Assembly: GCA_965233195.1 (NCBI GenBank) | Contig: CBDDSB010000016.1 | Location: 155,146-219,145, forward strand | Length of the DNA: 64,000 nt | DNA from: an uncultured bacterium | Lineage (GTDB): Bacteria; Pseudomonadota; Gammaproteobacteria; Burkholderiales; SG8-39 | Direction of reading: 5' to 3' | Part shown: positions 30,855 through 50,477 of the stretch, piece after piece | How positions within the stretch are numbered: position 1 is the first letter of the stretch | Layout of the letters: each line of letters begins with the position of its first letter | Made by a program: the position numbers and the translations under genes | Notes under the pieces: generated by a model | What the model was told of the DNA's origin: nothing | Seen by the model: the letters and a program-made list of their open reading frames with translations, nothing else | The model's database searches: none

Positions 30855-30869
30855 AGAACTAGAGGTCTG

Positions 30870-31547: not shown

Positions 31548-31588
31548 GCGCGTTCTCCCTCTTGGGGCGATCCAAGTAACCCAGCTTT

Positions 31589-31606
31589 ACGCAACCCCCG
31601 TGCCAA
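31589..31606 (-). promoter_or_regulatory. sigma-54 (-24/-12) promoter upstream of the detached pilin gene
   Basis: The minus strand reads TTGGCACGGGGGTTGCGT, i.e. TGGCAC-N5-TTGC with exact spacing. The -12 GC lies 44 nt upstream of the pilin ATG (31547). Confidence 0.65.
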
Positions 31607-31694
31607 GATTGTCATTGTTCTAAAACAGGGGCTTAACTCACATCTCATCGCGGCAGAACGTCGAAATGCCGACAGGTGCGTTGGGGCGCCGACA

Positions 31695-33124: not shown

Positions 33125-33135
33125 GCGGAGTTGTG

Positions 33136-33148
33136 GACTAGACTAGTC
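33136..33148. promoter_or_regulatory. 13-bp palindrome GACTAG-A-CTAGTC in the divergent kinase/permease intergenic region
   Basis: Odd-length perfect palindrome, locally AT-richer than its surroundings. It sits in the short gap between 33124 (- gene start) and the histidine kinase start. Confidence 0.3.
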
Positions 33149-33156
33149 GCGGGGGA

Positions 33157-35714: not shown

Positions 35715-37453
35715 CAGTTCGCGTCAATCACCGCGATGCGGTCGTTGAAGCCCCGGTTGATCATCTGGGTCGGGTCGCGGCTGGCGAAGGAGGTGTTCAG
35801 GTCGCTGTTGCTGCCTTCCAGCCAATCGGTCAGGGTGCCGTTGGGACGCGCGGTTCCGTTCAGGCTGCGGCCGGAGATCACCAGGAGGCCGCGCTGCGTA
35901 TTGCCCGGGTTCATGAACGCGACCGAAAGGCACGTGCCCCCGGTGGTGCAGTTGCGCGGCGCCGCGCCCGCCGGCGAGACGCTCTGCGCCACCGCGTAGT
36001 AGGAAACCTGGTGCCAGTTGTTGCGGAAGAACCAGCTGAAAGTCGCGTCGGTGGAATCGAGGATCGGATGGTCGGCGAGGAAGGCGATCGGGACCGAGAG
36101 GGTTTCGAGCTTGCAGACTTGAAGGAGGCCGAGCACGCCGCACAACAGGTCGCCGAGCAAGCCGCCGAAGCCCACTCCGCCGCCGACGGCGGCCTCGGCG
36201 TTCAAGGTGATGGTGGCCGAACCGCTGGCGTTGAGCACGCCGCCAGAGGTGCGCGGCGCGGCGTTCACGTTGGTCATCGCCGCTGCGTTGTTGAGCTGCC
36301 GCAGCGCCATGCCGACGTTGGCGGCCGTGGCGGTGAGCGTGAACGGCATATTGCCGGCGGGGCAGATGATGAAGCAGCGGCGGTAGAAGTCGCAATCCAC
36401 CGTCGTGGCGGTGGTGGTGCAGGTTGCCGAGTTGATCCCCGCCCCGGCGAGTGAAGCCGCGCTCCAGGCCACGAAGGTGGGGTCGCAGCGCGGGCCGGCG
36501 GTGCCGGGATCACAGGCAATGCCGGAGCCGGGTATCGTCTCGGAGAAGCTGGCGGGCAGCAGGCCGCCAGACGTCGCCGTCGCCGCGCTGCCTTGGAACT
36601 TGTCGAATGGGGCCAGCGTGGGATTGCCGAACGGCGCGGCGAATGGCAGCGCCGGGTTCGCCGGCCAGGCACCGGTCGAGTAGACGGTGCGCAGCTGCGG
36701 CGCGAACTGGCGCTCGAAGCGCGAGGCCACGGCAGCTTCGATTCCAGGCAAGATCTCGGCGCCACTGATCGACAGCACCTGATCGTTGAACGACTCCGCG
36801 GGGCCGGCGCTCTGGAACGCTGTGTTTGCCGGCGTGGTCGCGTTCTCGCACTCGAGGTAGTCGCGCAGGTCGATGGCTGGCGAGGGCGTGGTGCGGCTCT
36901 GCACCCGCGCGTTACAGCCGGCGGCGGCCGCGACCTGCAGCGGCCGTCCCGGCGCGATGATCAGCGCGACGATGTCGCCGGTGGCGTCGAGCGTGAGCTG
37001 ACCTGTCGAGTTCGAATTGATGACGGTGTTGGTCGCTGCGTTGGGCTTCGCCCAGGCCGGCGATACCACGTACCAGAGCGGCTCGCCGGCGATGTCGCGC
37101 CATTTGTCGAGGCCGAGAGTCCGCCAGGGCAGCCGGCCGACGGCGGGCAGCGTGCAATTGCCCGCGGCGATGCCTTCGTTCGCGGTGCCGATGTTGCCGG
37201 CCGCCTCGGGACACGGCAGCCGTCCCGGGTCGTTCTCGGTGGTCATCGCGGTGCGGTGCGCGACGTAGCCGATGAGCGCGCTTTTCGCTTCTTGCAGGAT
37301 GCGCGCGTTGTGCGTCCGGTCCAGCGCCGTGCGGTTGATCGGCGTGCTGATCAGGGTCACGCCCCACCAGGCGGCGCCGAGGATCAGCACCGCGAGCATC
37401 GCCATCAACGCTGCGCCGCTTTGCTGCGCGCGCAGCTTGACTTCGCGATTCAT
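35714..37453 (-). CDS. large Cys-rich GspK-like minor pseudopilin candidate
   Basis: 579 aa. The N-terminus RAQQSG|AALMAMLAVLILGAAWW resembles the GspK-type leader (no Glu5). It shares GRLPCPE and GRLPWRTLGL...PLWYVV motifs with the adjacent 275-aa pilin. About 18 Cys. Confidence 0.5.
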   Translation of the reverse strand: MNREVKLRAQQSGAALMAMLAVLILGAAWWGVTLISTPINRTALDRTHNARILQEAKSALIGYVAHRTAMTTENDPGRLPCPEAAGNIGTANEGIAAGNCTLPAVGRLPWRTLGLDKWRDIAGEPLWYVVSPAWAKPNAATNTVINSNSTGQLTLDATGDIVALIIAPGRPLQVAAAAGCNARVQSRTTPSPAIDLRDYLECENATTPANTAFQSAGPAESFNDQVLSISGAEILPGIEAAVASRFERQFAPQLRTVYSTGAWPANPALPFAAPFGNPTLAPFDKFQGSAATATSGGLLPASFSETIPGSGIACDPGTAGPRCDPTFVAWSAASLAGAGINSATCTTTATTVDCDFYRRCFIICPAGNMPFTLTATAANVGMALRQLNNAAAMTNVNAAPRTSGGVLNASGSATITLNAEAAVGGGVGFGGLLGDLLCGVLGLLQVCKLETLSVPIAFLADHPILDSTDATFSWFFRNNWHQVSYYAVAQSVSPAGAAPRNCTTGGTCLSVAFMNPGNTQRGLLVISGRSLNGTARPNGTLTDWLEGSNSDLNTSFASRDPTQMINRGFNDRIAVIDAN

Positions 37454-37875
37454 TTGCGCGCCGGGGCCGCCTGCACGCGACCGCCCTCGCCAAGAACGTC
37501 GCGCACCTGGCCGGTGCTGCGGTCGAGCACTTCGCCGGGGCGCAGCTCGACGCGCTGGCCGCCTTCGCCGGCGGGCACCGGCACCCGCCCGCCGCGGCGC
37601 TCGGGGTCGATCACCGGCGCGTCGGCCGTGCCTTCGAGCATGGCGTCGCCGTTGACGAATACCGTCGAGCGCCCGCCCGAGCGCTTCACGTAGCCGTCGA
37701 GGCGGGTGGTCGGCGACACAGTGGTCACCGCCGGCCGGTCGGGCACGCGCGCCTTGCGCCGCGCGTCGAGCGCCGCGCGCTGCTCGGGCGTGAAAAACAG
37801 GCGGCCGAGTTCCTGGGAACTCGCATCAGCAACGATCCCCGCAAACAAGATTGTGGATAGAAGGGCGCGCTTCAT
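37450..37875 (-). CDS. small secreted protein, PilP/MshK/GspC-HR-like candidate
   Basis: Internal Met (MKRALLSTILFAGIVADASSQ signal peptide) of ORF 37450-37986, 141 aa. Beta-rich C-terminal part (STVFVNGDAML...VELRPGEVLD). ATGA overlaps on both sides. Confidence 0.4.
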   Translation of the reverse strand: MKRALLSTILFAGIVADASSQELGRLFFTPEQRAALDARRKARVPDRPAVTTVSPTTRLDGYVKRSGGRSTVFVNGDAMLEGTADAPVIDPERRGGRVPVPAGEGGQRVELRPGEVLDRSTGQVRDVLGEGGRVQAAPARK

Positions 37876-38480
37876 CCCTTCGCCGCCCGGTCGATGATGG
37901 TGATGAGGTCGAGGTCGCACTCGCCGCGCAGGCGCGGTGAAATCTGGATGCCGGCCGGCGGCTGGGCGATGCGGGTCAGCGAGCACTGGCGCACCGCGTA
38001 GTAGGCGTTGCCGGAAGCGCGCAGGTCGGCGAGGAAGCGCAGCAGGTCCTCCTCGTGCAGGAGCGCGAGCTGCACGCGCATCGCGCTGGCGAAGAACTCG
38101 ACGTTACCCGGTTTGCCCGGCGCCGAGACCAGCAGCCGCTGGCGGTCGACGCGATACGAAAGGTCGAGCAGCTCGCGCTGCTTGCGGATGCGGGTGATGG
38201 CGTCGGCCCACTCGAGGCGTCGCTCCTCGCCGAGGATGTTGAGCTGCTGGAGGCGCTTGTAGACGTCAAGCTTCTCGATCACCTCGCGCTCCTCCTCGGA
38301 AATGCGCGCGAGGCGCTCGGTGGCCTGCTGGCGCTCGGCCTGCGCCGCCTGCGCCTGCCGCTGCGCTGCGCCGAGCGTGGCGTCGGCGCCCCCGATCAGG
38401 CCGGCGCCGGCCGCGACCAGCAGCGCGGCGAAGAGCGCGGGCAGCGCGAGCTTGCGCAGCTCGTCGGGGGTGAAGGTCAC
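37872..38480 (-). CDS. bitopic assembly protein, GspM/PilO/MshJ-like
   Basis: 202 aa. One N-terminal TM (LALPALFAALLVAAGAGLIGG), a coiled-coil Q/E/R-rich segment, and a C-terminal globular domain. Its position after the GspL-like gene fits. Confidence 0.5.
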   Translation of the reverse strand: MTFTPDELRKLALPALFAALLVAAGAGLIGGADATLGAAQRQAQAAQAERQQATERLARISEEEREVIEKLDVYKRLQQLNILGEERRLEWADAITRIRKQRELLDLSYRVDRQRLLVSAPGKPGNVEFFASAMRVQLALLHEEDLLRFLADLRASGNAYYAVRQCSLTRIAQPPAGIQISPRLRGECDLDLITIIDRAAKG

Positions 38481-40024
38481 GGCAGCCTCCGCGTCAGCGT
38501 GATGGTGAAGCGCGGCGCCTCGCTCGACTCGGCCGCGCCGATGTCGCCGGTGAGCGTGCCCTCCGAAGTGATATCGAATGGTAGCTGGGTACGCGCGAGC
38601 TCGTAGCCGCCGCTTGCCAGGGCCTCGGCGAAGCGCTGCACCTGCGCGGTAATGCCGCGGTAGTCATTGCGCTGCGTCGCGTTGACCCGCCCGGAGAGGG
38701 CGAATTGCACGATCGCCTCGCCTTGGGCCGCGGGTTTTGCTTCGGTGGGGGGAGGTTTCGCGCCTCGCGGGTCGGCGGGCTTGCCCACACTCCAGTTGAT
38801 CAGCTCGACTTCCATCTGCGGGAAGCGGTCGAGCACCCGCGCGGCGTGGACGAACGCGGCGTCGGGCGAGGCGCTGCGCTCGGCGATGCGCCGGAACTCC
38901 ACGACGGTTACGCGCAGGTTCTCGGTGGTCGTCTGCGTCACCGGGAAGGTGGCCGTAATGCGCTCGTACTGCTGCGTCGCCGCGCGCGCTTCGCGCGTTT
39001 GCGACTCGGCGCGTTCGCGCGCGTTCATTGCCTCGAGCCAGCGGTTGCCGCTGAAGAGAGCGCAAACGGCGAACACGGCGGCGCCGGTCGCCACGATGCC
39101 GCGCTGCAGCTGCCAGATGGAATAGTTGCGTCGATCCGCGCTGCTGGCGAACTGCTCGCGCGGCGGCTTGCGCGCCGCGAGCCGGAGATAGAGCGCTTCG
39201 GCGCCGATGCCCTCGGGCGTAGCGCGCAGACCGACGGCGCGCAGGGCGTCGGCGCCGTCGACGGTCTGGAAGGAAACGCGGGCGTCCGACACCAGCATCT
39301 GTTCGAAGAGCGCGCGCTCCCCCGGCGGGGCGACGACCAGCGCGCGCAGCGGCCCGCCGTCGCGCGGCAGGGCGCGCAGCGTGGTCAGGTACTGGGTGAG
39401 GCGCAGCGTCTCCGAGCGCACGAACGCCGCCAGAGCCTGCGCCGGCACCATCTCGACGATGCGCTCAAGGCGCGCGAAGCGCAGCTTGCCGCCGTCGATG
39501 AAGCACTGGCGCAGACCGGCACGGTCGGCGGTTACCACCAGCGCTCGCGCGCCACGGGCGCCAAGGCGCGCCGCGAGGAGCGGGGCGAGCAGCGGCACGG
39601 AGTACACGCCGGCCAGCCGCGCCCCCGCTTCCGCGAGCGCATCGAGCCAGGGCACGAACTGCAGGGTATTGGTGAACGACGTGAGCAACAGCTTCTCGTT
39701 GCGGCGCTGTGGCGTTTGCACCGGGCCGAGCGACAGGGCTGCGGCGAGGCGTGTGTCGCGGTAGCGCTGGGCGAGGCGGCGCTCGACCACCGCCACGCGG
39801 TCGCTGCCGCGCAGCCAGGGCACCTGCTCCTCGTGGAAATCCTCGCCGGCCAGGTCGGCGAGCACGGCGAATAGTGCGCCGCGCCGCCCGCGCAGGAACT
39901 CTCGGAAGGCGCTCACGCCGAGGTCGTCGCCGGAGAACTTGGCTTCGAGCTCAAGCTTGCCGCGCGCCGCGGTGTAGAGGTAATGATCCGCCGCGGTGAA
40001 GTAGAGGAGGTGGCGCACCGCCAT
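38477..40024 (-). CDS. bitopic GspL / fused PilM-PilN / MshI-like assembly protein
   Basis: Internal Met (MAVRHLLYFTAADHYLY) of ORF 38477-41035, 515 aa. A cytoplasmic domain of about 300 aa, one TM (IVATGAAVFAVCALFSG), and a periplasmic domain of about 190 aa. The start shares one nt with the gspF-like stop. Confidence 0.5.
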   Translation of the reverse strand: MAVRHLLYFTAADHYLYTAARGKLELEAKFSGDDLGVSAFREFLRGRRGALFAVLADLAGEDFHEEQVPWLRGSDRVAVVERRLAQRYRDTRLAAALSLGPVQTPQRRNEKLLLTSFTNTLQFVPWLDALAEAGARLAGVYSVPLLAPLLAARLGARGARALVVTADRAGLRQCFIDGGKLRFARLERIVEMVPAQALAAFVRSETLRLTQYLTTLRALPRDGGPLRALVVAPPGERALFEQMLVSDARVSFQTVDGADALRAVGLRATPEGIGAEALYLRLAARKPPREQFASSADRRNYSIWQLQRGIVATGAAVFAVCALFSGNRWLEAMNARERAESQTREARAATQQYERITATFPVTQTTTENLRVTVVEFRRIAERSASPDAAFVHAARVLDRFPQMEVELINWSVGKPADPRGAKPPPTEAKPAAQGEAIVQFALSGRVNATQRNDYRGITAQVQRFAEALASGGYELARTQLPFDITSEGTLTGDIGAAESSEAPRFTITLTRRLP

Positions 40025-41229
40025 CAGAACTTCATTTTCGAGATGGCGTCGTACACCGGTCCGAGCACCGACAGCATCACCCATCCGAGGATCGCGCCCA
40101 GTACCACGGTGAGCAACGGCTCGATCATCGCCTGCACCTTGGCGATCGACTCGCGCACCTCGCGGTTGTAGAAGTAGCTGACGTTGAGCAGCGCGGTGTC
40201 GAGCTTGCCGGTGCCCTCGCCGATGCGCATCATGCGGATCACCAGCGGCGGGAACAGCGACAGATCCTGGAATGCCGCGGTCAGGTTCTTGCCCTCGGCG
40301 ATCTGCTGCCCGGCCTTGCGCAGCGCGCGCTCGAGCGGACGGTTGCCGACGATCTCCTCGCAGCTGCGGATCGCGTCGAGCACCGTGATGCCGGAGCTGT
40401 ACATCATGGCAAAGCTCGAGGCGAAGCGCGACAGGATGATCTTGCGCAGAATCGGGCCGATCACCGGCATGGAGATCTTGTAGCGATCGACCGCGTACTC
40501 CACCGCCGGGTTGGTCCGGATCGCGAGCTTCAGGCCGAACCAGGCGACGAACGGCGCGGCGAGAATCGCCCACCAGTAGCCGACGAAGAAGCTCGACACC
40601 GCCATCAGGATGCGGGTCTGCAGCGGCACCTCCTGCCCCATGTTGCGGATGAAGCCGGTCATCTGCGGCACGAGGTAAATCATCAGGAAGAAGGTGACGA
40701 TGAGCACGATGCTGCCGACGAACGCGGGGTACATGGCGAGCTTCTTGGTCTGCGCGGCGAGCTCGTCCTCCCACTTTAGCGACTCCGAGAGGCTCTGCAG
40801 CACGTCGGCCAGCTTGCCGGTGGCCTCGCCCGAGCGCACCAGGCTGACGAACACCCGGCCGAAGACGTTGGGGTAGTCCGCGAGCGCCTGCGACAGGTTC
40901 TGGCCGCCCTGGATCGATTCGATCAGGCCCGACACCACCTCGCGAAAGCGCGGATTCTCGAGGCTGTCGCGCAGGTCGGTCAGCCCTTCGACCAGGGGCA
41001 CGCCGGCGGTGGCGAGCTGCTCGAGATGGAAGCAAAAGTTGATCAGGTCCTGGCGCGTGACCTTGCCGCCGCCGAACAGGCGCGCCATGTCGCTCGCCAG
41101 CGTGCCGCCCACCAGGTCGAGCTCCATGCGCTGCAGGCGCTGCTCGAGGTCGAACAGGTTGATCGCCTCCAGCCGGCCGACGACCGCCTTGCCCTGCGCG
41201 TCGATCGCCTTGTAGCTGAAGAGTGGCAT
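40024..41229 (-). CDS. type II secretion / type IV pilus platform protein (GspF/PilC/MshG family)
   Basis: 401 aa. Duplicated T2SF domains with three TM segments. LSQALADYPNVFGRVFVSLVRSGEATGKL and the second-repeat motif MMRIGEGTGKLD. Confidence 0.92.
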   Translation of the reverse strand: MPLFSYKAIDAQGKAVVGRLEAINLFDLEQRLQRMELDLVGGTLASDMARLFGGGKVTRQDLINFCFHLEQLATAGVPLVEGLTDLRDSLENPRFREVVSGLIESIQGGQNLSQALADYPNVFGRVFVSLVRSGEATGKLADVLQSLSESLKWEDELAAQTKKLAMYPAFVGSIVLIVTFFLMIYLVPQMTGFIRNMGQEVPLQTRILMAVSSFFVGYWWAILAAPFVAWFGLKLAIRTNPAVEYAVDRYKISMPVIGPILRKIILSRFASSFAMMYSSGITVLDAIRSCEEIVGNRPLERALRKAGQQIAEGKNLTAAFQDLSLFPPLVIRMMRIGEGTGKLDTALLNVSYFYNREVRESIAKVQAMIEPLLTVVLGAILGWVMLSVLGPVYDAISKMKF

Positions 41230-41231
41230 GA

Positions 41232-42941
41232 CTAGGCCATGCGGTCCGTCAGATCGACCACGCGCATCACCTCATCCAGCGAGGTCGATCCCCCGCGCAC
41301 CAGGCGCACGCCGTCGTCGGCGAGGGTCTTGAAGCCGTTTGCGCGCGCCGCCGTGAGGATCTCGCGGGCGGTGGCGCGCCGCGCGATGAGCTCATCGATG
41401 CCCGAGTCGATCTTGAGCAGCTCGAGGATGCTCTGGCGGCCGTTGTAGCCCTGGTATTCGCACTTCTCGCAGCCGACGGCGCGGAAGATGGCGGCCGGCT
41501 CGGTGGGCGAGAGGCCCAGCAGGCGACGGTCCTTGGCGTCCGGCTCGTAGGACTGGCGGCACGTGCGGCACAGGCGCCGGACCAGCCGCTGGCCGATGAT
41601 GCCGATGATGTTGCCGGCGAGGATGTCGGGCACGATGCCGATGTCGAGCAGGCGCGGAAAGGCGCCCACCGCGGAGTTGGTGTGGAGGGTCGAATACACC
41701 TGGTGACCGGTCATGGCCGCGCGGAATGCCATCTCGGCGGTGTCTTGGTCGCGGATCTCGCCGACCAGGATGACATCTGGATCCTGACGCATCATCGCGC
41801 GGATGCCGTTGGCGAAGTCGAGCTTGGCCGCCTCCGACACCGAGGTCTGGCGGATCAGCGTCATTGGGTACTCGACCGGGTCCTCCAGGGTCATGATGTT
41901 CACCCCGTCGGAGTTGATGTGGTTGAGCACCGAGTAGAGCGTGGTGGTCTTGCCGCTGCCGGTCGGGCCGGTCACCAGGATGATGCCCTCGGGCCGCGCG
42001 AGCATGCGCTTCAGCAGCTCGAGCTGCGATTCTTCCAGGCCGAGCTTGTCGAGCGGCACGATGCCCTTTTGCCGGTCGAGAATGCGCAGCACCAGGTTCT
42101 CGCCGTGCGTCGTGGGCAGGCTGGCGACGCGGAAATCGATCACCCGGCCGGCCATGGTCGCCGAAATGCGGCCGTCCTGCGGCGCGCGCGTCTCGGCAAT
42201 GTTCATCTTCGCCATCACCTTGATGCGCACCGCCATCGCCGGCCAGTACGTCTTGTGCAGCGAACGGATCTGGCGCAGCACGCCGTCGATCCGGTAGCGG
42301 ATGCGCAGGAAGTTCTGCTCGGGCTCGAAGTGGATATCGGAGCCGCCGCGCTCCACCGCGTCGGCGAGCAGCGCCGAGATCAGGCGCACCACCGGCTGCG
42401 AGTACTCGTCGCCCTCGGCGACCGTGGCGTAGTCGACCTCGCCGGTCTCGATTTCCTTGAGGATGCCGTCGATCGAGAACTCGTGGCCGTAGTAGTGCTC
42501 GATCGCGCGCTCGATCTCCGATTCGCCGGCCAGGCGCAGCTCGATCTCGTACTCGCCCTTGAGGTGCGCCCGCAGCTGGTCGATCGCCACGATGTTGTTG
42601 GTGTCGGAGAGGGCGACCATGAATTTGCGCTGGCTGCGGTCGAGTGCCACCGGGAACATGCGGTTGCGCCGCGCCATTTCGCGCGGCAGCTGCTTGAGCG
42701 CCGCCGGGTCGACGATGATGCGCGCGAGGTCCACCGACTGCAGTCCCAGCTTCTCGGACAGCGCGTCGCGCAGCGTCGCTTCCGAGACGAAGCCGAGCTG
42801 CACCAGCAGCTTGCCGACCGGGATGTGCTGCTTGGTCTGCTCGAGCAGCGCGATGCGCAGCTGGTCCTCGGTCAGAATCCCCTGGTCGATCAGGATCTGG
42901 CCGATATGGCGCTTCGCCTGCGGCGGAACCGGCTGGTTCAT
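41232..42941 (-). CDS. GspE/PilB/MshE family secretion ATPase with MshEN-type N-terminal domain
   Basis: 569 aa. Walker A GPTGSGKTTT, Asp box, Walker B ILVGEIRD, His box, and tetracysteine CRTC...CEKC. The N-terminus has two 24-aa Leu/Gly repeats separated by 5 aa. Confidence 0.93.
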   Translation of the reverse strand: MNQPVPPQAKRHIGQILIDQGILTEDQLRIALLEQTKQHIPVGKLLVQLGFVSEATLRDALSEKLGLQSVDLARIIVDPAALKQLPREMARRNRMFPVALDRSQRKFMVALSDTNNIVAIDQLRAHLKGEYEIELRLAGESEIERAIEHYYGHEFSIDGILKEIETGEVDYATVAEGDEYSQPVVRLISALLADAVERGGSDIHFEPEQNFLRIRYRIDGVLRQIRSLHKTYWPAMAVRIKVMAKMNIAETRAPQDGRISATMAGRVIDFRVASLPTTHGENLVLRILDRQKGIVPLDKLGLEESQLELLKRMLARPEGIILVTGPTGSGKTTTLYSVLNHINSDGVNIMTLEDPVEYPMTLIRQTSVSEAAKLDFANGIRAMMRQDPDVILVGEIRDQDTAEMAFRAAMTGHQVYSTLHTNSAVGAFPRLLDIGIVPDILAGNIIGIIGQRLVRRLCRTCRQSYEPDAKDRRLLGLSPTEPAAIFRAVGCEKCEYQGYNGRQSILELLKIDSGIDELIARRATAREILTAARANGFKTLADDGVRLVRGGSTSLDEVMRVVDLTDRMA

Positions 42942-43009
42942 TGGAGGATCATAAGGGGGCTGTTCATGAAGCCACTGTCAACAATTCCCATGCACGTTGT
43001 CAGCTTCCT

Positions 43010-44293
43010 TCAGCGGGTGAGCTGCGCGGCGCGGGTCTCGGCGCCGGGCAGATCGAAGCGGGCGCCGCGCGCCTTGGCGAGCGCGATGGCGCGCTGGTAA
43101 TAGTCGAGCGCGAGCTTCGGCTGGCGCAGCTGGTCCAGGCTCACCGCGAGGTTGTAGGCGAAATCGGCGTTGTCCGGCTCGGCGGTATACGCCCTGAAGT
43201 ATTCCTGCTGGGCCTCGGCCCAGCGGCCCTGCTGCGCAAGCTGATTGCCGAGGGTGAAATTGAGCACGTGCGACCCCGGATTGTCGGCCAGCACGGATTT
43301 CACCCGGCTCTCCGCGGCCACCGGATCCGTGCGCCCGGCGCGCAACGCGATGAGGGCTGCCAGTGCGTGCGAATCGCGCGGATCGGATTGCAGCAGGCGC
43401 AGGTAGCCGGCCTCGGCATGCTCGAAACGTCCCGCGCGCACGTCGAGCGCGGCGAGGCCGAGCAGCGCGTCGCGATTCGCCGGTTCCTCGCGCAGCGCGT
43501 GCTGGTACTCAGTACGCGCGCTGGCGAGATCGCCCGCGAGGTAGGCGGCGTAGCCGCTGGTGATGTTCGGATGCACCTGTGGCGCCGGCCGGCTCGACGT
43601 GATCTCGGTCGCGGGTGCGGGGCGGGGTGCCTGGAGTCGCGGGGTCTCCGGCGCGCGCTGTATCGGCGGCAGCGGAATCGCCGGCGCAGGCTGCGCAAGC
43701 GCTGGCGGCGCCGGGGGGGTCGGCTGCGGCGCGGGCTTCGACGGGGTTGAGGCCGGGAGGCCGGGAATCGCCGCCGCTGGCACTTGCGGCACCAGGCTCG
43801 GCGTGGGCTTCAGATCCGCGGCTGCGACCTGCGTCTCGCCTGCCGGCGGAGGCGGGTTGCGGTTGACCAGCGCCGCCGGCGGTTGCAGCTGAAGCCAGAA
43901 ATAGACCACGGTGCCGACGGCGAACACGCCGAGCGCGCCCATGGTGATGTAGAAGGGCAGGCGCGGGTTGGGCTCCCGGAACTTTGCCTCGAAGACCTTG
44001 CGAGCGCTGGCGCGGCCGCCCGCCTCCGCGTCGGCCGTGGGTGCGGGTCGCGCGGCCGGCGCGGCCTCGCGCGGCGGCCGGTTCTCGCGCTCCGTCGGCG
44101 GCGCGGGCTTGGCCGGCTGCTCGTCGCCCTCCAGCGCGAGGGGCTGGCGGATATCGGGTAGCTGGTCGCGCGTGACCACCGCCTGCTCGGGTAGCGGAGC
44201 GGGCTCGGCGATCGCAGGCTCGCCGCGCGCGCGGCGCTGCGCCTCCTCCTTGGCCCTTTCCGCCTTCTTCAGCGCCTCGAGCAGCAGGCTCAT
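43010..44293 (-). CDS. GspB/ExeB-like N-terminus + TM + Pro-rich linker + TPR protein (MshN-like)
   Basis: 427 aa. MSLLLEALKKAERAKEE resembles the GspB N-terminus. TM segment FYITMGALGVFAVGTVVYFWL. The C-terminal half has TPR-like A/Y/L repeats. Confidence 0.65.
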   Translation of the reverse strand: MSLLLEALKKAERAKEEAQRRARGEPAIAEPAPLPEQAVVTRDQLPDIRQPLALEGDEQPAKPAPPTERENRPPREAAPAARPAPTADAEAGGRASARKVFEAKFREPNPRLPFYITMGALGVFAVGTVVYFWLQLQPPAALVNRNPPPPAGETQVAAADLKPTPSLVPQVPAAAIPGLPASTPSKPAPQPTPPAPPALAQPAPAIPLPPIQRAPETPRLQAPRPAPATEITSSRPAPQVHPNITSGYAAYLAGDLASARTEYQHALREEPANRDALLGLAALDVRAGRFEHAEAGYLRLLQSDPRDSHALAALIALRAGRTDPVAAESRVKSVLADNPGSHVLNFTLGNQLAQQGRWAEAQQEYFRAYTAEPDNADFAYNLAVSLDQLRQPKLALDYYQRAIALAKARGARFDLPGAETRAAQLTR

Positions 44294-44296
44294 GGC

Positions 44297-46051
44297 TCAG
44301 TCGACCGCGGCGGCGCTGCGCGGCCTGCTCGGATTGGGCTTGCTGAAAAAATCCGCGCCGGGAAGGAGCTGGCGGTAGCCGGCGTAGTCGCCGTCGATGC
44401 TCGCGTCCTTGATCACCACCGCGCGCAGGAAGATCACCAATTCCGTTTTCTGGTTGCCATCCCTGCGCTGCGAGAAAATCTGCCCGATCCCCGGCAGGTC
44501 GCGCACGCCGGGAATCGTGTCCTCGATGTTGGTGACGGCGTCCTGCATCAGCCCGCCGAGCACCGCGACTTGGCCGCTCTGCACGCGCAGCACCGATTCC
44601 ATCTCGCGCGTCTGGATCACCGGCACCAGGCTGGTGACGCCGGCGATGGCGAGGCTCGGGTTGGGGTCGGCGACGTCGCCGATCTTGCGCGAAATGGTCG
44701 GCCGCAGGTTCAGCACCACGGTATCGGTATCGCTGATCTGCGGCACCAGGCTCATGATGAAGCCCACCGGCACCGAATTGAGCGTGGTGGTGAAGGTTGA
44801 AATACCTGGCCCACCCACGGTAGGCGCGGACTGCGTCGCCTGGATGGTGAAATAGACCAGGTTGTCGACCACCTTCAGCACCGCGGTCTGGTTGTTGAGC
44901 ACGCTGATCTTGGGGCTGGAGAGCACGCGCACGTCGCCGAACGACTCGAGGAACTTGAGCGCGAAGTTGAAGTTGAGGCTGGTGATCGCCCCGCCGAACA
45001 CGAATGCATTGGTATTGATGCCCGCAGGGGTGTTGGCGGAGGACTGGCCGAACTCGAGGCCGCTCGCGCCCTGGTTGAAGCTCGGCACGCCGGTCGAGGT
45101 CACGCCGCCCGAGCGCAGCCGCTGCCAGTCAATGCCGCGCTGGTACTGGTTGTTGAGCTGCACCTCCGCCACCGTCGCCTCGATCAGTACCTGGCGGCGT
45201 GCGTTGGTCATCACGTTGTCGAGGAACTCCTGCACCTTCTCGTGCTGGCGGGACGTGGCGCGGATGTTGAGGATTCCCGTCTCCGGGTTGGCGATGACCG
45301 AGGCGGCCTCGCGGAACGTGGCGACCGGCGAGGGCGGCGGCGTGCCCGGGGTGGCGGACGGCGTGGCAGGCGCACCGCCAGGCTGCGCCGCCGAGGTGGT
45401 CGACGGTGGCGGTGGCGGCGGCGCGGCGGGGATCACCTTGTCGGTCTCCTGCAGGATCTCCTTGATGTTCGCGACCAGCGTGTCCCAGAACTTGTTGGCC
45501 GATATCGAATTGATGGTGGCGGTGGAATTGTTCTGCCCGCTCGCTCCCTGGCCCACCAGGCCGCCGGTGACCTGGGTCGACACCGTGGCGATGCTGCGCG
45601 CATCGCGCGTCATATTCACGTAGTCGATGCGGTATACGCGCAGGAAGGGCGTGTCGCGCATCACCACCAGGTTGCCGCCGTCGATCTCGTAGCGCATGTC
45701 GACTTGCCGCGAGATGCGCGTGAGCAGCTGCGGCAGCGTCTGGTCGATGGCATTCAGCGTCACCGTCCCGGTCAGGTCCGGGTGGATATCAACGTTGAGC
45801 CGGGCATCGCGCGCGAGCGCGAACAGCAGCTCCTGCACGCGCACGTTGTTCACCACCACGCTATAGGTCTCGGGGCGCACCGACGGCTTGGGCTGCGGCA
45901 GCATCGGCGTGATCTGCACCGGCGGCGGAATGGTCCCGGCCACGGGCCCCTGCTCACGGAGATGGGAATCGCCCGGCTTGAGCGGCTGCTGGCCGCAACC
46001 GGCGAGGACTGCCACTGCGAACGCGGCTAATGCCGTCTTTGTCGTGCTCAT
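44297..46051 (-). CDS. secretin (GspD/PilQ/MshL family), lipoprotein
   Basis: 584 aa. Lipobox VLAGC, N-domains, a Pro/Ala/Thr-rich linker, and a secretin C-domain (VLSSPKISVLNNQTAVLKV; IPGVRDLPGIGQIFS...TELVIFLRAVVI). Confidence 0.9.
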   Translation of the reverse strand: MSTTKTALAAFAVAVLAGCGQQPLKPGDSHLREQGPVAGTIPPPVQITPMLPQPKPSVRPETYSVVVNNVRVQELLFALARDARLNVDIHPDLTGTVTLNAIDQTLPQLLTRISRQVDMRYEIDGGNLVVMRDTPFLRVYRIDYVNMTRDARSIATVSTQVTGGLVGQGASGQNNSTATINSISANKFWDTLVANIKEILQETDKVIPAAPPPPPPSTTSAAQPGGAPATPSATPGTPPPSPVATFREAASVIANPETGILNIRATSRQHEKVQEFLDNVMTNARRQVLIEATVAEVQLNNQYQRGIDWQRLRSGGVTSTGVPSFNQGASGLEFGQSSANTPAGINTNAFVFGGAITSLNFNFALKFLESFGDVRVLSSPKISVLNNQTAVLKVVDNLVYFTIQATQSAPTVGGPGISTFTTTLNSVPVGFIMSLVPQISDTDTVVLNLRPTISRKIGDVADPNPSLAIAGVTSLVPVIQTREMESVLRVQSGQVAVLGGLMQDAVTNIEDTIPGVRDLPGIGQIFSQRRDGNQKTELVIFLRAVVIKDASIDGDYAGYRQLLPGADFFSKPNPSRPRSAAAVD

Positions 46052-46142
46052 TCCGAGGAACGCCCTCCCCTAGTAAGGATACCACGATCATTACCTGAGG
46101 AACCCGTCGTAAACGCCTGTCGCGCAGGCATTTTCCGCTTGT

Positions 46143-47555
46143 TTACAACTCCCGCCGGAGCTCGCCGAAGCTGCGCGGCGCGACGCGGAACGCTTCCCGG
46201 TAGCGCGGGGGCAGCCGCCGCGCGGCGGCGACGGCCTCCTCGTGGCTGGCGAAATCCCCGAACAACACCCAGAGCCGGTACTGGTCGCCCGATGCGACCG
46301 GAATCACCATCAATTCGTCCAGGGGCACAAGGTCGCGGGCGCGGAGGAGGAAGCGCTCCATGCGCGCCGGATCGCTGTTGTCGGTGACGTAGAGCTCGAG
46401 CGAATAGCGTTCGTCGTCCGCCTGTTCGAGCCGCTCGCGGCTGGCGGAGAGGCGCGCGGCGAGCAGGCGCTGCCCCGCGGGTGAATACCCGGCCAGGCGG
46501 TGCTCTTGCTCGGCGTCCAGCCGCTGTGCCGGCTCCGGTTTTGCCGGCTCGGGCGGATCTTCGCGCACCGGTTCGCGCACCGGTTCCCGGACCGCGCTTG
46601 ACGGGGCGACCGCTACGGGGGCCGGCGCGCTCGGCGCGCTCGGCTCCGGCGGCGATCGCAGCCACGGGATGCCGGCTCCCACGGCGACGCCCAACGCGGC
46701 CGCGGCGGCCAGGTATGCCAGCGGCCGCCAGGACCGGCGCGGCGCCGCAAACTCCGAATCGGCGACCGCAGCGCGCACGTGCCGGTCGGTTATTGCGTGC
46801 GTGTTCTCGGTATAGGCTGCGAGCAGGGCCTTGTCGGCGAGGATATTGATGCGCCGCGTGAGACCGTCGGCGGCGCGACCGATGCGCCGCACGGCGCGCG
46901 GCGTAAACACCTCGGGACCGCGATAGCCGGCCGCGCGCATGCGGAAGGAAAGATACTTCGCCACCTCCGCCAGCGTGAGCGGACGCATGCGGAACGAGTG
47001 CGTGATGCGGTCGCGCAGCTGGCGCAACTCGTTCTTCGCCAGGGTCTGGTCGAGCTCGGGCTGCCCGAACAGCACGATCTGCAGCAGCTTGTGCCGGTTC
47101 GACTCCAGGTTGGACAGCAGCCGCACCTGCTCCAGGGTGTCCTCGGGCATGACGTGGGCTTCGTCGATCAGGATCACCACGCGACGTCCGGCGCCGTAGA
47201 GCGCGATCAGGTGCTCCTGCAGCTCGCGCAGGGCGACGCTGCGCCGCTCAGGCGAAAGCTTGAGCTCCAGGTCGTCGGCGATCGCATGCAGGATTTCCTC
47301 GCGCGCGAGCGACGCCGTGGCGAGGTAGATGGTCGCCACCTGCGGCGGCAGACGCTCCATCAGCACCCGGCACAGCATGGTCTTGCCGCTGCCGACCTCG
47401 CCCGACACCTTGACGATGCCCTCGTCGTGCAGCACGGCGTAGATCAGCGCCTCGAGCGTGGCGCCGCGGTCCGCGCCATCGAAGAAGAAATCGGTGTGCG
47501 GCGTGATGCGAAACGGCGGCTCGGTGAGCCCGAAGTGCTCCAGATACAGCGCCAC
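46143..47555 (-). CDS. ExeA/GspA/MshM-like AAA+ ATPase with TM and SPOR-like periplasmic domain
   Basis: 470 aa. MALYLEHFGLTEPPFRITP, Walker A GEVGSGKT, Walker B VVILIDEAH, a TM (LAYLAAAAALGVAVGAGI), a Pro-rich linker with REPV repeats, and a C-terminal YRLWVLFGDFASHEEAVAAARRLP (SPOR-like). Confidence 0.85.
   Translation of the reverse strand: MALYLEHFGLTEPPFRITPHTDFFFDGADRGATLEALIYAVLHDEGIVKVSGEVGSGKTMLCRVLMERLPPQVATIYLATASLAREEILHAIADDLELKLSPERRSVALRELQEHLIALYGAGRRVVILIDEAHVMPEDTLEQVRLLSNLESNRHKLLQIVLFGQPELDQTLAKNELRQLRDRITHSFRMRPLTLAEVAKYLSFRMRAAGYRGPEVFTPRAVRRIGRAADGLTRRINILADKALLAAYTENTHAITDRHVRAAVADSEFAAPRRSWRPLAYLAAAAALGVAVGAGIPWLRSPPEPSAPSAPAPVAVAPSSAVREPVREPVREDPPEPAKPEPAQRLDAEQEHRLAGYSPAGQRLLAARLSASRERLEQADDERYSLELYVTDNSDPARMERFLLRARDLVPLDELMVIPVASGDQYRLWVLFGDFASHEEAVAAARRLPPRYREAFRVAPRSFGELRREL
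46560..46595. repeat. 12-bp tandem repeat x3 (third copy degenerate) in the ExeA-like linker
   Basis: ttcgcgcaccgg ttcgcgcaccgg ttcccggaccgc. This encodes the REPV-REPV-RE segment on the coding strand. Confidence 0.7.
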
Positions 47556-47557
47556 GC

Positions 47558-48940
47558 CTACTTGTCCTCGCCGCTGTTCATGCGGCTGTAGAGGGTGGTG
47601 CGATTGACGCCGAGCAGCTTCGCCGCCTGGCTGACGTTGCCGCGGGTGAGGCGCAGCGCCGCCTCGATATAGCCGCGCTCCCAGGCCTTCAGGGTCTGGT
47701 CGAGGTCGAACGCGCCGCCGCGCTCGAGCTGGCGCAGGGCCTGCTCGGCGATGGCGTCTTTCGCCTCACCTCTCGGAAAGCGTTGTTCTTCGATGTCCAG
47801 CTCCGGCTCGAGCTCGGCCGGCGACAGGCGCTGCCCGGGGTACTTGGCGGCGAGGCGGATGACGATGTTGCGCAGCTCGCGCACGTTCCCCGGGAAGTCG
47901 TAGCGCAGCCAGCGCGCGGCCGCGGCGTCGTCGAGCTCGAACGAATCCTTCTTGAAGTGATCCAGCAGCAGGAGCTTGTCCTGTTCCAGCTCGCGCAGCG
48001 GCGGCACGCTCAGCGTGAACACCGACAGGCGGTGGTAGAGATCGGCACGGAACGCGCCCTCGCGCACCGCGCGACGCAGGTCGCGGTTGGTGGCGGCGAC
48101 GACGCGGCAGCGCGCGACCCGGCGCTGGGTCTCGCCCACGCGCTGGTACTCGCCGTTCTCGAGCACGCGCAGCAGCTTCGCCTGCATCTCGATCGGCAGC
48201 TCGCCGATCTCGTCAAGGAACAAGGTGCCGTCGGCCGCATCCTCGAAGAAGCCCGGCTTGGTCGCCTGGGCGCCGGTAAAGGCGCCTTTGACGTGGCCGA
48301 ACAGCGTGGGCTCGACGAGCTGCGGCGAGATCGCCGCGCAGTTCAGGCTGAAATACGGTCGCGAGGCGCGCGGCGACAGGCGGTGCAGTCGCGTCGCTAC
48401 CAGCTCCTTGCCGCTGCCCGATTCGCCTTCGATCAGCACCGGATAAGGTGCGCCGGCGAATTGCGCGATCTGGCTCTTCAGCTTGGCGAGCGGCGGGCTC
48501 GCGCCGACGAAGTCCTGCGCCTCGGTTGCCGGCAGCTCCAGGCCCCGCGCGAGCGCGCGCGCGAGGCTCGCCGGATCGGCGGGCTTGGCGACGAACTCCC
48601 AGGCGCCGAGCGCACGCGCGTGGCGCGCGTTGGCGGCCTCGTTCTGGCCCGACAGCACGAAGATGCGCATGCGCGGCGAGTGCGCGAGCAGGTCGGCGAT
48701 CAGGCGAAAGCCCTCCTCCGGCGAGTGCGGCGCCGGCGGCAGCCCGAGGTCGACCAGCGCGAGCGGCGGCGGCGCGTCCAGCTGGCGCAAGAGCTCGATG
48801 GCGTGCGGGCGCGAGTCGCAGGCGTAGACCGTGTATTCGGCGCCGAGCGCGAAGGCGAGCGTGTCGGTGATCAGCGGGTCGTCGTCCACGACCAGCAACC
48901 CCGGCTTTCCTTCAGACTTGAATTGCGGCTTCGTTGTCAC
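47558..48940 (-). CDS. sigma-54-dependent response regulator (receiver + AAA+ EBP + Fis-type HTH)
   Basis: 460 aa. Receiver LLVVDDD...ALVDLGLPP...FVAKP. AAA+ GESGSGKE, GAFTGA loop (GHVKGAFTGAQ), FPGNVRELRN, and a C-terminal HTH NVSQAAKLLGVNRTTLYSRM. Confidence 0.92.
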   Translation of the reverse strand: MTTKPQFKSEGKPGLLVVDDDPLITDTLAFALGAEYTVYACDSRPHAIELLRQLDAPPPLALVDLGLPPAPHSPEEGFRLIADLLAHSPRMRIFVLSGQNEAANARHARALGAWEFVAKPADPASLARALARGLELPATEAQDFVGASPPLAKLKSQIAQFAGAPYPVLIEGESGSGKELVATRLHRLSPRASRPYFSLNCAAISPQLVEPTLFGHVKGAFTGAQATKPGFFEDAADGTLFLDEIGELPIEMQAKLLRVLENGEYQRVGETQRRVARCRVVAATNRDLRRAVREGAFRADLYHRLSVFTLSVPPLRELEQDKLLLLDHFKKDSFELDDAAAARWLRYDFPGNVRELRNIVIRLAAKYPGQRLSPAELEPELDIEEQRFPRGEAKDAIAEQALRQLERGGAFDLDQTLKAWERGYIEAALRLTRGNVSQAAKLLGVNRTTLYSRMNSGEDK

Positions 48941-49649
48941 GAACGCATCTCATGAACGCGGTTTCGAGGCTGGCCTCGCCGTAGCGCGCGCGCAGCGCGG
49001 CCGGGGTTCCCCGCCAGCGCACCCGGCCGCGGTCGAGCACCGCGATGGACGTGCACAGCTCGTCGACGTCGGCGAGCACGTGCGAGGTGAAGAACAGCGT
49101 GCGGCCCTCGGCGGCAAGGCGGCGCAGCACCGATTTCACCGCGACGCGCGCCGCGGGGTCAAGGCCGCTCATCGGTTCGTCAAGCAGGTACAGATCGCGC
49201 GGCAGCAGGAAGCAGGCGGCGAGGCCGAGCTTCTGCGTCATGCCTTTCGACAGCGTCCGCACCGGCCGCTCGAGCGCCCCGCGCTCCAGCTCGAGCTCAT
49301 CGAACAGCGCCACGGCCCGGGATGCGTCATAACGCGCGCCGGCGAGCTCCAACATCATGGAGAGGAATTCGCGTCCGCGCAGGTAGTGGGGCGGGTTGAA
49401 GCGCTCCGGCAGATAAGCAAGGCGACGCCTTGCCGCGGGGTCCTGCGCGGCGATACCGAAAATCTCGATCGCACCGGCGTCGCGCGCAATGAGATCGAGC
49501 ACGCACTTGATCAGCGTGGTCTTGCCGGCGCCGTTGGCGCCCACCAATCCGAATGCCTCGCCGGCCGCGACGTCGATATCGACGCGCGCCAGCGCTTCGT
49601 CTCGGTTGTAACGCTTGACGAGCGCCGCAATTCTTAACGCTTCCCCCAT
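48912..49649 (-). CDS. ABC transporter ATP-binding protein (ABC-2/DrrA-like subfamily)
   Basis: Internal Met (MGEALRIAALVKRY) of ORF 48912-50429, 245 aa. GANGAGKTT, LSKGMTQKLGLA and LYLLDEPMSGLDP. The 3' end overlaps the response-regulator start by 29 nt. Confidence 0.85.
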   Translation of the reverse strand: MGEALRIAALVKRYNRDEALARVDIDVAAGEAFGLVGANGAGKTTLIKCVLDLIARDAGAIEIFGIAAQDPAARRRLAYLPERFNPPHYLRGREFLSMMLELAGARYDASRAVALFDELELERGALERPVRTLSKGMTQKLGLAACFLLPRDLYLLDEPMSGLDPAARVAVKSVLRRLAAEGRTLFFTSHVLADVDELCTSIAVLDRGRVRWRGTPAALRARYGEASLETAFMRCVRDNEAAIQV

Positions 49650-49667
49650 GCTTGATAATATTACGCC

Positions 49668-50477
49668 GTGCCGCAAGCGCAGATTGTTGAAATACAGGAC
49701 GTTTCCTTCGGCTATGACCCCGCCCGGCCGGTGCTGCGAGACATCAATCTCGCGATCCCGCGCGGCGCGGTCGTCGGCATCATGGGGCAATCGGGCTGCG
49801 GCAAGACCACGCTGCTGCGCATCATCATGGGCGCCTACCTGCCCTCGCGCGGCAGCGCGCGCGTGCTCGGGCACGCGACCCGCGAGCTCGACGCCGATGG
49901 CCTGTATGCCATGCGCCGCAAGATGGGCATGCTGTTCCAGTTCGGGGCCCTGTTCACCGACATGTCGGTCTACGAGAACGTGGCCTTTCCGCTGCGCGAG
50001 CACGCCGACCTGCCGCCCGAGCTGCTGCACGACCTGGTGACGCTCAAGCTGGAGGCGGTCGGCCTGCGCGGCGCGGCGCACCTGATGCCGACCGAGCTTT
50101 CCGGCGGCATGGCGCGGCGCGTGGCGCTCGCGCGCTCGATCGCGCTCGACCCGCAGCTCATCCTGTACGACGAGCCGTTCACCGGCCTCGACCCGATCTC
50201 GTTCGGCGTCATCGTGCGCCTGATCCGCAGCCTGAATGATTCGCTCGGCGCCACCTCGGTGATCGTCACGCACGACGTGCAGGAGGCGCTGGACGTGGTG
50301 GACTACGTGTATTTCATGGCGGCCGGCCGCGTCATCGCGCAAGGCACGCCGGACGAGATCCGGGCGAGCCCCGAGCCGTTCGTCAACCAGTTCGTGAACG
50401 GCCGGCCCGACGGGCCGGTGCCGTTCCACTACCCGGCGCCGGAATACGCCGCGGATCTCGAAGTGGTTGCGGTTTGA
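49668..50477 (+). CDS. mlaF: phospholipid ABC transporter ATP-binding protein MlaF
   Basis: 269 aa, GTG start. GQSGCGKTT, LSGGMARRVALARS and ILYDEPFTGLDP. Followed by mlaE and mlaD. Confidence 0.9.
   Translation: MPQAQIVEIQDVSFGYDPARPVLRDINLAIPRGAVVGIMGQSGCGKTTLLRIIMGAYLPSRGSARVLGHATRELDADGLYAMRRKMGMLFQFGALFTDMSVYENVAFPLREHADLPPELLHDLVTLKLEAVGLRGAAHLMPTELSGGMARRVALARSIALDPQLILYDEPFTGLDPISFGVIVRLIRSLNDSLGATSVIVTHDVQEALDVVDYVYFMAAGRVIAQGTPDEIRASPEPFVNQFVNGRPDGPVPFHYPAPEYAADLEVVAV

Follow-up and report, generated by a model that had tools for sequence, protein, structure and literature searches.

A sigma-54-dependent response regulator in an MSHA-like type IV filament locus: a probable member of an unnamed family related to PrsR

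The DNA analysed here, a single 64-kb stretch (64,000 nucleotides, referred to as the window) of contig CBDDSB010000016.1 from an uncultured bacterium of the Burkholderiales lineage SG8-39, encodes a response regulator of the sigma-54 enhancer-binding type, which in its receiver resembles PrsR, the regulator of exosortase/PEP-CTERM systems, and which is located among genes for the assembly of a filament. The question raised by the locus is why a PrsR-like regulator should be found in a pilus locus. According to our analysis the regulator is not a member of PrsR; it is probably a two-component response regulator that shares ancestry with PrsK/PrsR and represents a separate, unnamed family dedicated to a type IV filament locus resembling that of the mannose-sensitive haemagglutinin (MSHA) pilus. 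The puzzle then dissolves, because the family is separate, its synteny with filament genes is conserved, and a plausible target is located inside the same locus.

The product of the regulator gene is the sole sigma-54 activator encoded within the window. Its complete receiver, AAA+ domain with intact GAFTGA and Fis-type helix-turn-helix (HTH), all reported in a preliminary description made from the sequence, were confirmed by Pfam domains and motif reading:

47558..48940, minus strand: sigma-54 enhancer-binding response regulator, 460 aa, GTG start (open reading frame (ORF) list, Pfam, NCBIfam)
48551..48895, minus strand: receiver domain, residues 16-130 (Pfam Response_reg, E 3.4e-13)
48686..48760, minus strand: segment ALVDLGLPPAPHSPEEGFRLIADLL, residues 61-85, with the PrsR-type 5-residue insertion after the phospho-Asp (alignments)
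48011..48508, minus strand: sigma-54 interaction AAA+ domain, residues 145-310 (Pfam Sigma54_activat, E 1.1e-63)
48269..48286, minus strand: GAFTGA, residues 219-224 (motif reading)
regulator residues 332-386: AAA_lid_14 (Pfam)
47579..47689, minus strand: Fis-type HTH DNA-binding domain, residues 418-454 (Pfam HTH_8, E 4.9e-13)

The receiver contains the acidic pocket D19-D21, the phospho-acceptor D64 within VDLGLPP (63-69), S97 and K119, and the AAA+ domain has Walker A (GESGSGKE, 172-179) and Walker B (LFLDEIGE, 240-247) on either side of GAFTGA. This order of receiver, sigma-54 AAA+ and Fis-type HTH is expected of PrsR, as a feature that is not PrsR-specific.

Relatives were sought with the receiver only (residues 1-140 of the regulator) among 1.84 billion cluster representatives. 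The first matches were a broad set of full-length activators with DLGLPPxPHxPxEGF, i.e. the clade of the regulator itself, followed by the bona fide PrsR proteins P0251 and P0262. P0251 was then used as query for further PrsR, and three of the proteins collected are named PrsR by NCBI. In the alignment, all 16 bona fide PrsR carried LDLGLPPxPxxxxEGF, and in it the 5-residue insertion that follows the phospho-Asp in the window protein, and in the joint alignment the insertion was common to essentially all clade members, when about 70 other receiver-containing sigma-54 activators were without it. The statement in the preliminary description that a DLGLPP...EG segment is the hallmark of PrsR receivers was therefore correct, and the extended loop DLGLPP-x5/6-EGF is used here as an empirical hallmark derived from these 16 members. 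Insertions of other lengths were seen in two activators, L021 and L077. For L021, an Acidobacteria activator with a similar loop, PrsR was the top model below threshold, and it was rejected as a PrsR reference since its 436 bits are below the cut-off.

The same description had placed the regulator in the PrsR subfamily, which the NCBIfam hidden Markov models (HMMs) did not bear out. The regulator obtained 332.3 bits on the NtrC model TIGR01818 (cut-off 558.6) and 316.3 bits on the PrsR model TIGR02915 (cut-off 502.6), that is, 226 and 186 bits short, and no model reached its cut-off, when the positive controls P0251 and P0262 passed TIGR02915 with 605.7 and 525.6 bits. The regulator is thus not a PrsR member. 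Because unrelated receiver-containing activators of Geobacteraceae and Myxococcales had 407-441 bits on the PrsR model (with the ranking AtoC > NtrC > PrsR), the absolute TIGR02915 score carries no weight, and it was dropped as weak support for PrsR after this calibration; on the NtrC model other activators reached 390-464 bits. What sets the family apart is not the score but how PrsR ranks against AtoC. PrsR was the top NCBIfam model in six of the eight other clade members scanned, always below cut-off (293-377 bits), namely in the 57%-identical Rhodocyclaceae orthologue and in five of the seven more distant members, and the window protein is the exception within the clade in having NtrC as its marginal top model.

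Two further matches of the receiver search, P0255 and P0270, have a clear PrsR receiver and an HTH, with TIGR02915 as sole NCBIfam match (363-411 bits, below cut-off), and degenerate AAA+ domains with no Walker A and no GAFTGA. As judged from their sequences, they may have arisen from PrsR and lost the capacity to activate sigma-54.

When the domains were scored separately, the window receiver had 96 bits on a PrsR-receiver profile versus 63 bits on a generic one (a difference of about 33 bits), and the AAA+ domain 225 bits on the PrsR profile versus 283 on the generic. The same pattern was met throughout the clade: the mean difference of PrsR minus generic was +29.7 bits for the receiver (23 of 23 members higher on PrsR), -50.9 bits for the AAA+ domain (all members lower on PrsR), and -22.3 bits for the C-terminal part (22 of 23 lower). 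The PrsR resemblance of the regulator is confined to the receiver, and its AAA+ and DNA-binding domains are not PrsR-like.

A neighbour-joining tree was calculated for 114 receiver-containing activators with 100 bootstraps, and also by domain. The outgroup sample consisted of the other 79 loci from a genome-contig scan with the regulator, which gave one true orthologue (L001) and was saturated by generic activator peptide patterns, e.g. FGHVKGAF. Bootstrap support was as follows:

clade of the regulator: full length 95%, receiver only 92%, AAA+ only 35%
PrsR with two degenerate relatives: full length 95%, receiver only 46%, AAA+ only 85%
clade of the regulator plus PrsR, exact bipartition: full length 83%, receiver only 44%, AAA+ only none
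clade of the regulator plus PrsR, at most two strays: full length 95%, receiver only 84%, AAA+ only 12%

In the full-length tree the clade of the regulator was separate from the PrsR clade, as its sister. Of the proposed PrsR-type placement, the kinship accordingly stood (83%), and the inclusion did not, as the regulator belongs to a clade of its own outside PrsR.

The core gene order of activator, ExeA, secretin, TPR, MshE and GspF was found in relatives at L081, L001, L162/L163 (marine metagenomes) and L167. In L081, with an 89%-identical homologue, mla is followed divergently by ABC-activator-ExeA-secretin-TPR-MshE-GspF and onward, including after GspF the homologues of the 515-aa and 202-aa proteins of the window and the start of a third. 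The order is the same without the ABC gene in L001, a Rhodocyclaceae metagenome-assembled genome (57% identity). At the control locus of a true PrsR (L168), the regulator gene lies between a HisKA_7TM+GAF kinase gene and two PEP-CTERM genes. This conserved synteny, as against the control, ties the family to the filament locus and not to exosortase loci. The clade is large: Burkholderiales metagenomes from soil and freshwater alone yielded more than 120 clusters of ≥84% identity, and more distant members occur in Rhodocyclaceae and marine samples; homologues are labelled by JGI as 'NtrC family response regulator'.

The regulator gene had been described as heading its string of genes, which holds for L001, where it is the first gene, whereas in the window it is second, after the ABC ATPase gene. 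The ABC ATPase/activator arrangement is conserved in L081 and L164 and absent in L001. The coordinates agree with the earlier statement that the regulator start lies 29 nt inside the 3′ end of the ATPase gene (GTG at 48940, ATPase stop codon at 48912-48914). The only alternative in-frame start is TTG at 48898, which would exclude the residues 'KP' kept among homologues directly before LLxVDDD; the conserved 'KP' puts the start upstream of this TTG, and the GTG start with the overlap is therefore favoured. A comparable 26-nt overlap is present at L081.

At two loci of very distant clade members (L165:5074-8138 and L166:8001-10864; proteins P0190 and P0201), HTH_8 is missing and GAFTGA is degenerate (GSFSGA, GSYTGA). 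Here an activator-ExeA pair immediately precedes kdsD-kdsC-lptCAB-rpoN, the secretin and assembly genes are missing, and the rpoN cluster of L165 carries Pfam Sigma54_CBD and Sigma54_DBD. The intact locus of the window occupies the same position relative to its rpoN cluster, and the L165/L166 arrangement may be a decayed remnant of the filament locus.

A predicted target of the regulator was found before a prepilin-type gene of the same locus:

30870..31547, minus strand: prepilin-type protein, 225 aa, MKARQTGFTLVEIAIV... (N_methyl motif)
31590..31605, minus strand: predicted sigma-54 promoter TGGCACGGGGGTTGCG, 42 nt upstream of the ATG of 30870..31547
31657..31695, minus strand: predicted upstream activating sequence of two tandem dyads (column conservation in 52 loci)
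31677..31695, minus strand: dyad 1, GTGTCGGCGCCCCAACGCA (position weight matrix (PWM) score 15.4)
31657..31675, minus strand: dyad 2, CTGTCGGCATTTCGACGTT (PWM score 23.5, above the highest shuffle, 18.7)

The sole exact TGGCAC-N5-TTGC in the window is at 31591..31605, with 0.19 expected, and thus the single sigma-54 activator and the single exact sigma-54 core of the window are both within the same conserved cluster. By a metagenome scan with a neighbouring gene, 57 loci with the same kinase/permease/signal-peptide-protein/pilin/kefB arrangement were collected, and 52 of the intergenic regions were aligned. GGCA...TTGC was kept in ≥80% of the 52 loci with a variable spacer separating the -24 from the -12 element, and the strict promoter pattern was present in 35, at 29-52 nt before the ATG. 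The consensus of the tandem dyads was nTGTCgnnnnncCGACgna and cTGTCGgnanttCGACGnn, of the type GTCG-N6-CGAC. Promoter and dyads are conserved across these loci despite pilin identity down to about 50%; the 225-aa prepilin, likely the major filament subunit, is kept at 47-95% identity in the 57 loci.

No comparable dyad site was found elsewhere in the window by PWM scan, and no further sigma-54 promoters or dyads were found before the ABC/regulator string, the secretin gene or mshE. One sigma-54 match with a single mismatch, at 36001, was discarded as lying within a coding region. In the PEP-CTERM box, a 17-nt motif 1 ending in TTTACA precedes a sigma-54 site at a distance of about 63 nt (Haft et al., PMC1569441); TTTACA/TGTAAA is absent from the sigma-54 promoter region of the window. 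The dyads are the predicted binding sites of the regulator described here. Between the dyads and the -24 element (31606-31656, minus strand) there is also an A/T-rich element, TAAgnnnnTGTTTta, conserved in most of the 52 loci, which on the opposite strand resembles a site for integration host factor, with two mismatches to WATCAANNNNTTR, and is possibly such a site.

The candidate partner of the regulator is encoded between the prepilin gene and the assembly genes:

33157..34890, plus strand: multi-pass membrane histidine kinase, 577 aa (best NCBIfam model PrsK, TIGR02916)

The PrsK match (71.9 bits, E 4.3e-20, cut-off 300) covers the catalytic core only, and the next kinase models had about 21 bits. 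Over this core the identity to a true PrsK is 26%, with HDIKNL versus HDLKNL in the H-box. The N-terminal part has about seven hydrophobic segments at 26-235, and no GAF or HisKA_7TM match was detected by Pfam. The position of the kinase gene is conserved in the metagenome loci, and the kinase is the likely partner of the regulator. With tree, domain profiles and kinase match in agreement, the phosphotransfer interface (kinase core and receiver) is PrsK/PrsR-like and the output half is not. The neighbours by which a PrsR would be recognised, a PrsK with 7TM and GAF parts together with PrsT, exosortase or PEP-CTERM genes, were not seen with this regulator: a regex scan gave no PEP-CTERM tail in any six-frame ORF of the window, and NCBIfam gave no exosortase or PEP-CTERM family among the window proteins scanned (about nine left-flank ORFs lay outside that scan), in agreement with what had been noted at the outset.

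In the circuit that these elements would form, the membrane kinase would phosphorylate D64 of the PrsR-type receiver, the activated AAA+ ring would bind the two tandem GTCG-N6-CGAC dyads about 55-95 bp upstream of the -24 element, the sigma-54 holoenzyme would be remodelled at TGGCAC-N5-TTGC (31590..31605), and the prepilin-type gene 30870..31547 would be switched on. Such a circuit would follow the logic by which PilS/PilR acts at pilA, and its parts would come from a module related to PrsK/PrsR. Filament assembly would be gated separately, as a probable second layer, by cyclic di-GMP (c-di-GMP) through the MshEN domain of the assembly ATPase. We infer the kinase-regulator pairing, the binding to the dyads, the dependence of activation on phosphorylation and the direction of control.

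Several points weigh against a PrsR-related family of its own acting at this pilin promoter. The exact promoter pattern alone is weakly significant, as 16 of 100 shuffles gave at least one match, the PWM score of dyad 1 taken alone is near chance, and a different regulator, with its gene in another part of the genome, could be the one that uses the dyads. The best HMM for the window protein itself is that of NtrC, marginally. The sister relation to PrsR rests almost wholly on about 120 receiver residues, with low values for the exact bipartition by receiver and for the AAA+ domain alone; the receiver likeness may stem from shuffled domains or a convergent loop, and the tree was made by neighbour joining from a sample that contains no curated PilR or NtrC reference sequences. 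Since the kinase gene is 12.7 kb from the regulator gene and on the opposite strand, their pairing is inferred. If the receiver is instead taken at face value, the regulator would be a genuine but divergent PrsR that is found in the pilus locus incidentally and whose real regulon is a PEP-CTERM/exosortase exopolysaccharide locus elsewhere. This would agree with the PrsR-type receiver, with PrsR as the best NCBIfam model of most clade members, with the best though sub-threshold NCBIfam matches of the kinase, the ExeA-like ATPase and the TPR protein to XrtA/PEP-CTERM families, and with the PEP-CTERM systems of the relatives Aquincola, Rubrivivax and Leptothrix (PMC9850573). We consider it decidedly unlikely, since the TIGR02915 score is far below cut-off and under those of unrelated activators, the well-supported clade lies outside PrsR, neither the AAA+ nor the DNA-binding domain is PrsR-like, and the filament synteny is kept from Burkholderiales to marine metagenomes, when a true PrsR adjoins PEP-CTERM genes. 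The conserved upstream sequence is also without the TTTACA-ending motif 1 of the PEP-CTERM box (PMC1569441), and within the limits of the scans described above neither a PEP-CTERM tail nor an exosortase was found in the window.

If the regulator were a PilR orthologue of the filament system, with a PrsR-like loop that is convergent or ancestral noise, the predicted function would not change, with a multi-pass membrane kinase controlling a response regulator that works with sigma-54 at a pilin gene, and the TGTC core contained in PilR binding sites of Pseudomonas aeruginosa was counted in its favour. However, the best model of the kinase is PrsK, regulator and kinase genes are apart, unlike pilS-pilR, and activators near PilB/PilC-like genes (L019, L038, L044) were outside the clade and had receivers without the insertion, a comparison that is weak as no curated PilR reference was included in it. 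No PilR model was among the best 25 of the 29 NCBIfam matches of the regulator. On the whole a PilR orthologue is unlikely. An NtrC-type regulator of nitrogen or general metabolism that lies beside the locus by chance is extremely improbable: TIGR01818 is the top NCBIfam model of the window protein and the JGI label of homologues points the same way, but the score is well under both the cut-off and those of other activators on this model, PrsR outranks NtrC in most other clade members scanned, no glnL/glnA-type context is present in the locus, and the gene lies 2 nt from the ExeA-like gene, with which it is co-conserved in every locus extending past the regulator.

It is conceivable, though rather doubtful, that PrsK/PrsR and the pilus-locus pair derive from one ancestral module in which the kinase monitors the inner-membrane pool of single-helix-anchored precursors, which would be prepilins here and PEP-CTERM proteins in exosortase systems. 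Homology is the sole support of this idea; in a weaker version, both systems would answer the same cue and be co-regulated during floc or biofilm formation. A parallel for the sensing of precursors would be PilS, which is reported to sense PilA. For PrsK the stimulus was left open by Haft et al. (2006), in whose words 'the nature of the stimulus ... remains obscure' (PMC1569441). If precursor sensing were true, the pilus-locus family would offer a tractable handle on what PrsK senses.

The remaining genes of the locus and its surroundings were as follows:

48912..49649, minus strand: ABC transporter ATPase, 245 aa (DrrA-like subfamily, ABC_tran)
46143..47555, minus strand: ExeA/MshM-like AAA_22 ATPase (best model TIGR03015, 213.6 bits, cut-off 324.5)
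44297..46051, minus strand: secretin, MshL-like (TIGR02519, 245.8 bits, just below the cut-off 250.2; Pfam Secretin)
43010..44293, minus strand: TPR protein in the MshN position (Pfam TPR families; weak best NCBIfam match PrsT, 67 bits)
41232..42941, minus strand: GspE/MshE-type assembly ATPase (T2SSE, MshEN; NF053729, 57.2 bits, passing the cut-off 38)
40024..41229, minus strand: GspF/PilC-type platform protein (T2SSF; GspF model, 303 bits)
34887..40024, minus strand: five further genes of the string, encoding 515 aa, 202 aa, about 141 aa (signal peptide), 579 aa and 275 aa (ORFs, pattern of third-codon-position GC)
34887..35714, minus strand: the 275-aa product, a prepilin-type protein (N_methyl motif)
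32363..33124, minus strand: weak ABC-2-type permease (ABC2_membrane_3, 19.8 bits, below threshold)
31695..32360, minus strand: 221-aa signal-peptide protein
24036..25469, minus strand: rpoN (sigma-54), last gene of the kdsD-kdsC-lptCAB-rpoN cluster (assigned by reading the translation)

The whole block is flanked by the mla operon on one side and by kdsD-kdsC-lptCAB-rpoN on the other, and its gene content marks it as an MSHA-like locus for a type IV filament that carries a two-component system of its own. Among the MSHA models, the MshL score fell just short of its cut-off and the MshE-related NF053729 was above. The other four proteins of the five had no family match in NCBIfam or Pfam, and nor had the candidate MshI/J/K equivalents. 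At the N-terminus of the assembly ATPase there are two repeats of the LGxxLLxxGxLxxxxL type, and filament assembly is probably gated by c-di-GMP via MshEN in addition to the transcriptional control. The genes that follow the regulator on its strand are tightly packed. The ExeA-like gene begins 2 nt past the stop codon of the regulator gene, and wherever a clade locus continues past the activator this gene is the next one downstream. The top matches of its product (TIGR03015) and of the TPR protein (PrsT) were discarded as uninformative for a link to exosortase systems, being below cut-off and, for the TPR protein, generic, with no MshM or MshN model among the hits.

The C-terminus of the ExeA-like ATPase (46143-46450, minus strand) has a transmembrane segment, a proline-rich spacer and then about 90 residues, YSLELYVTDN...YRLWVLFGDFASHEEA..., which look like a SPOR-type peptidoglycan-binding domain, for which Pfam gave no match; such a domain, if real, would fit a part in assembling the secretin like that of ExeA. 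The ExeA-like and secretin genes are 91 nt apart (46052-46142, minus strand), and this gap contains the hairpin GCCTG-cgcga-CAGGC followed by GTTTACG, which may serve in attenuation or in RNA processing inside the gene string. The permease and signal-peptide protein genes are conserved as a pair beside the pilin gene in most of the 57 metagenome loci, with 147 nt between the signal-peptide gene and that of the 225-aa prepilin. Together with the ABC ATPase (48912-49649), the permease (32363-33124) and the signal-peptide protein (31695-32360) may form a split ABC transporter dedicated to the filament system, for which PilG/H/I of Myxococcus would be a parallel.

Only 18 bp (49650-49667) separate the divergent start codons of the ABC ATPase and mlaF, with identical spacing in L081, and the promoters of the two strings are therefore inside the opposite coding regions or the starts are miscalled. 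A scan of 30500..50400 for sigma-70 promoters and terminators gave nothing above chance, so the operon boundaries rest on gene spacing only. Elsewhere in the window, and unrelated to the regulator, overlapping genes for a Ser/Thr protein kinase-like and a PP2C phosphatase-like protein were identified beside a YicC-family gene (1552-3154, plus strand).

If the regulator belongs, as is probable, to a PrsR-related family dedicated to the filament locus, a very abundant family of sigma-54 activators, unnamed and annotated at present as 'NtrC family' only, is thereby defined and gains a concrete testable target in the conserved promoter and operator before the pilin gene. The PrsK/PrsR signalling interface would then not be exclusive to PEP-CTERM/exosortase systems, and caution is called for when a PEP-CTERM regulon is inferred from the DLGLPP...EGF loop or from best-hit annotation. 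Sigma-54 and two-component control would also be added to MSHA-like filaments that appear, in addition, to be gated by c-di-GMP through MshE.

Compared with known systems, PrsR has in common with the regulator its three-domain architecture and the DLGLPPxPxxxxEGF insertion; among labelled relatives the receiver search puts it closest, and the neighbour-joining tree makes it the sister group. The core of the candidate partner kinase is PrsK-like, and the layout of the predicted promoter region is similar to that of the PEP-CTERM box, with an upstream site, a spacer of about 50-60 nt and a sigma-54 promoter before a single gene. The regulator differs from PrsR in its score (316 versus 502.6 bits), its own clade, its AAA+ and HTH domains, and its shorter linker between receiver and AAA+, which as read from the sequences is without the LExENRxL helix of PrsR. 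Moreover, the predicted operator consists of GTCG-N6-CGAC dyads with no TTTACA, the gene is located in a pilus/secretin locus and not beside PEP-CTERM or exopolysaccharide genes, and the kinase, unlike PrsK, has no GAF or HisKA_7TM match.

PilS/PilR controls pilA of type IVa pili in Pseudomonas, Myxococcus and Geobacter. The system of the window is alike in having a membrane kinase, an activator with receiver, AAA+ and HTH, and, as predicted here, a sigma-54 promoter and tandem upstream sites directly before a pilin gene of the same locus. It differs in the PrsR/PrsK-like receiver subtype and kinase core, in the position of the regulator gene at the head of the assembly gene string, away from kinase and pilin genes, and in its machinery, which is MSHA-like (MshL-like secretin, MshE with MshEN, ExeA/MshM-like ATPase, TPR protein) and not type IVa.

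The MSHA pilus of Vibrio and Shewanella shares with the locus the MshL-like secretin, the MshE-type ATPase with MshEN, the GspF platform, the MshM-like ATPase, the MshN-like TPR protein and prepilins. In the window, however, the genes are arranged in a different order, the candidates for MshI/J/K are without a family match, and a sigma-54 activator, a kinase, an ABC ATPase and an ABC-2-like permease are added. We know of no dedicated sigma-54 activator described inside an MSHA locus, and literature searches on this locus type found nothing relevant. The regulatory logic is a known one, and what appears to be new is a family of pilus-locus activators sister to PrsR, its predicted operator, and sigma-54/two-component control within an MSHA-like locus.

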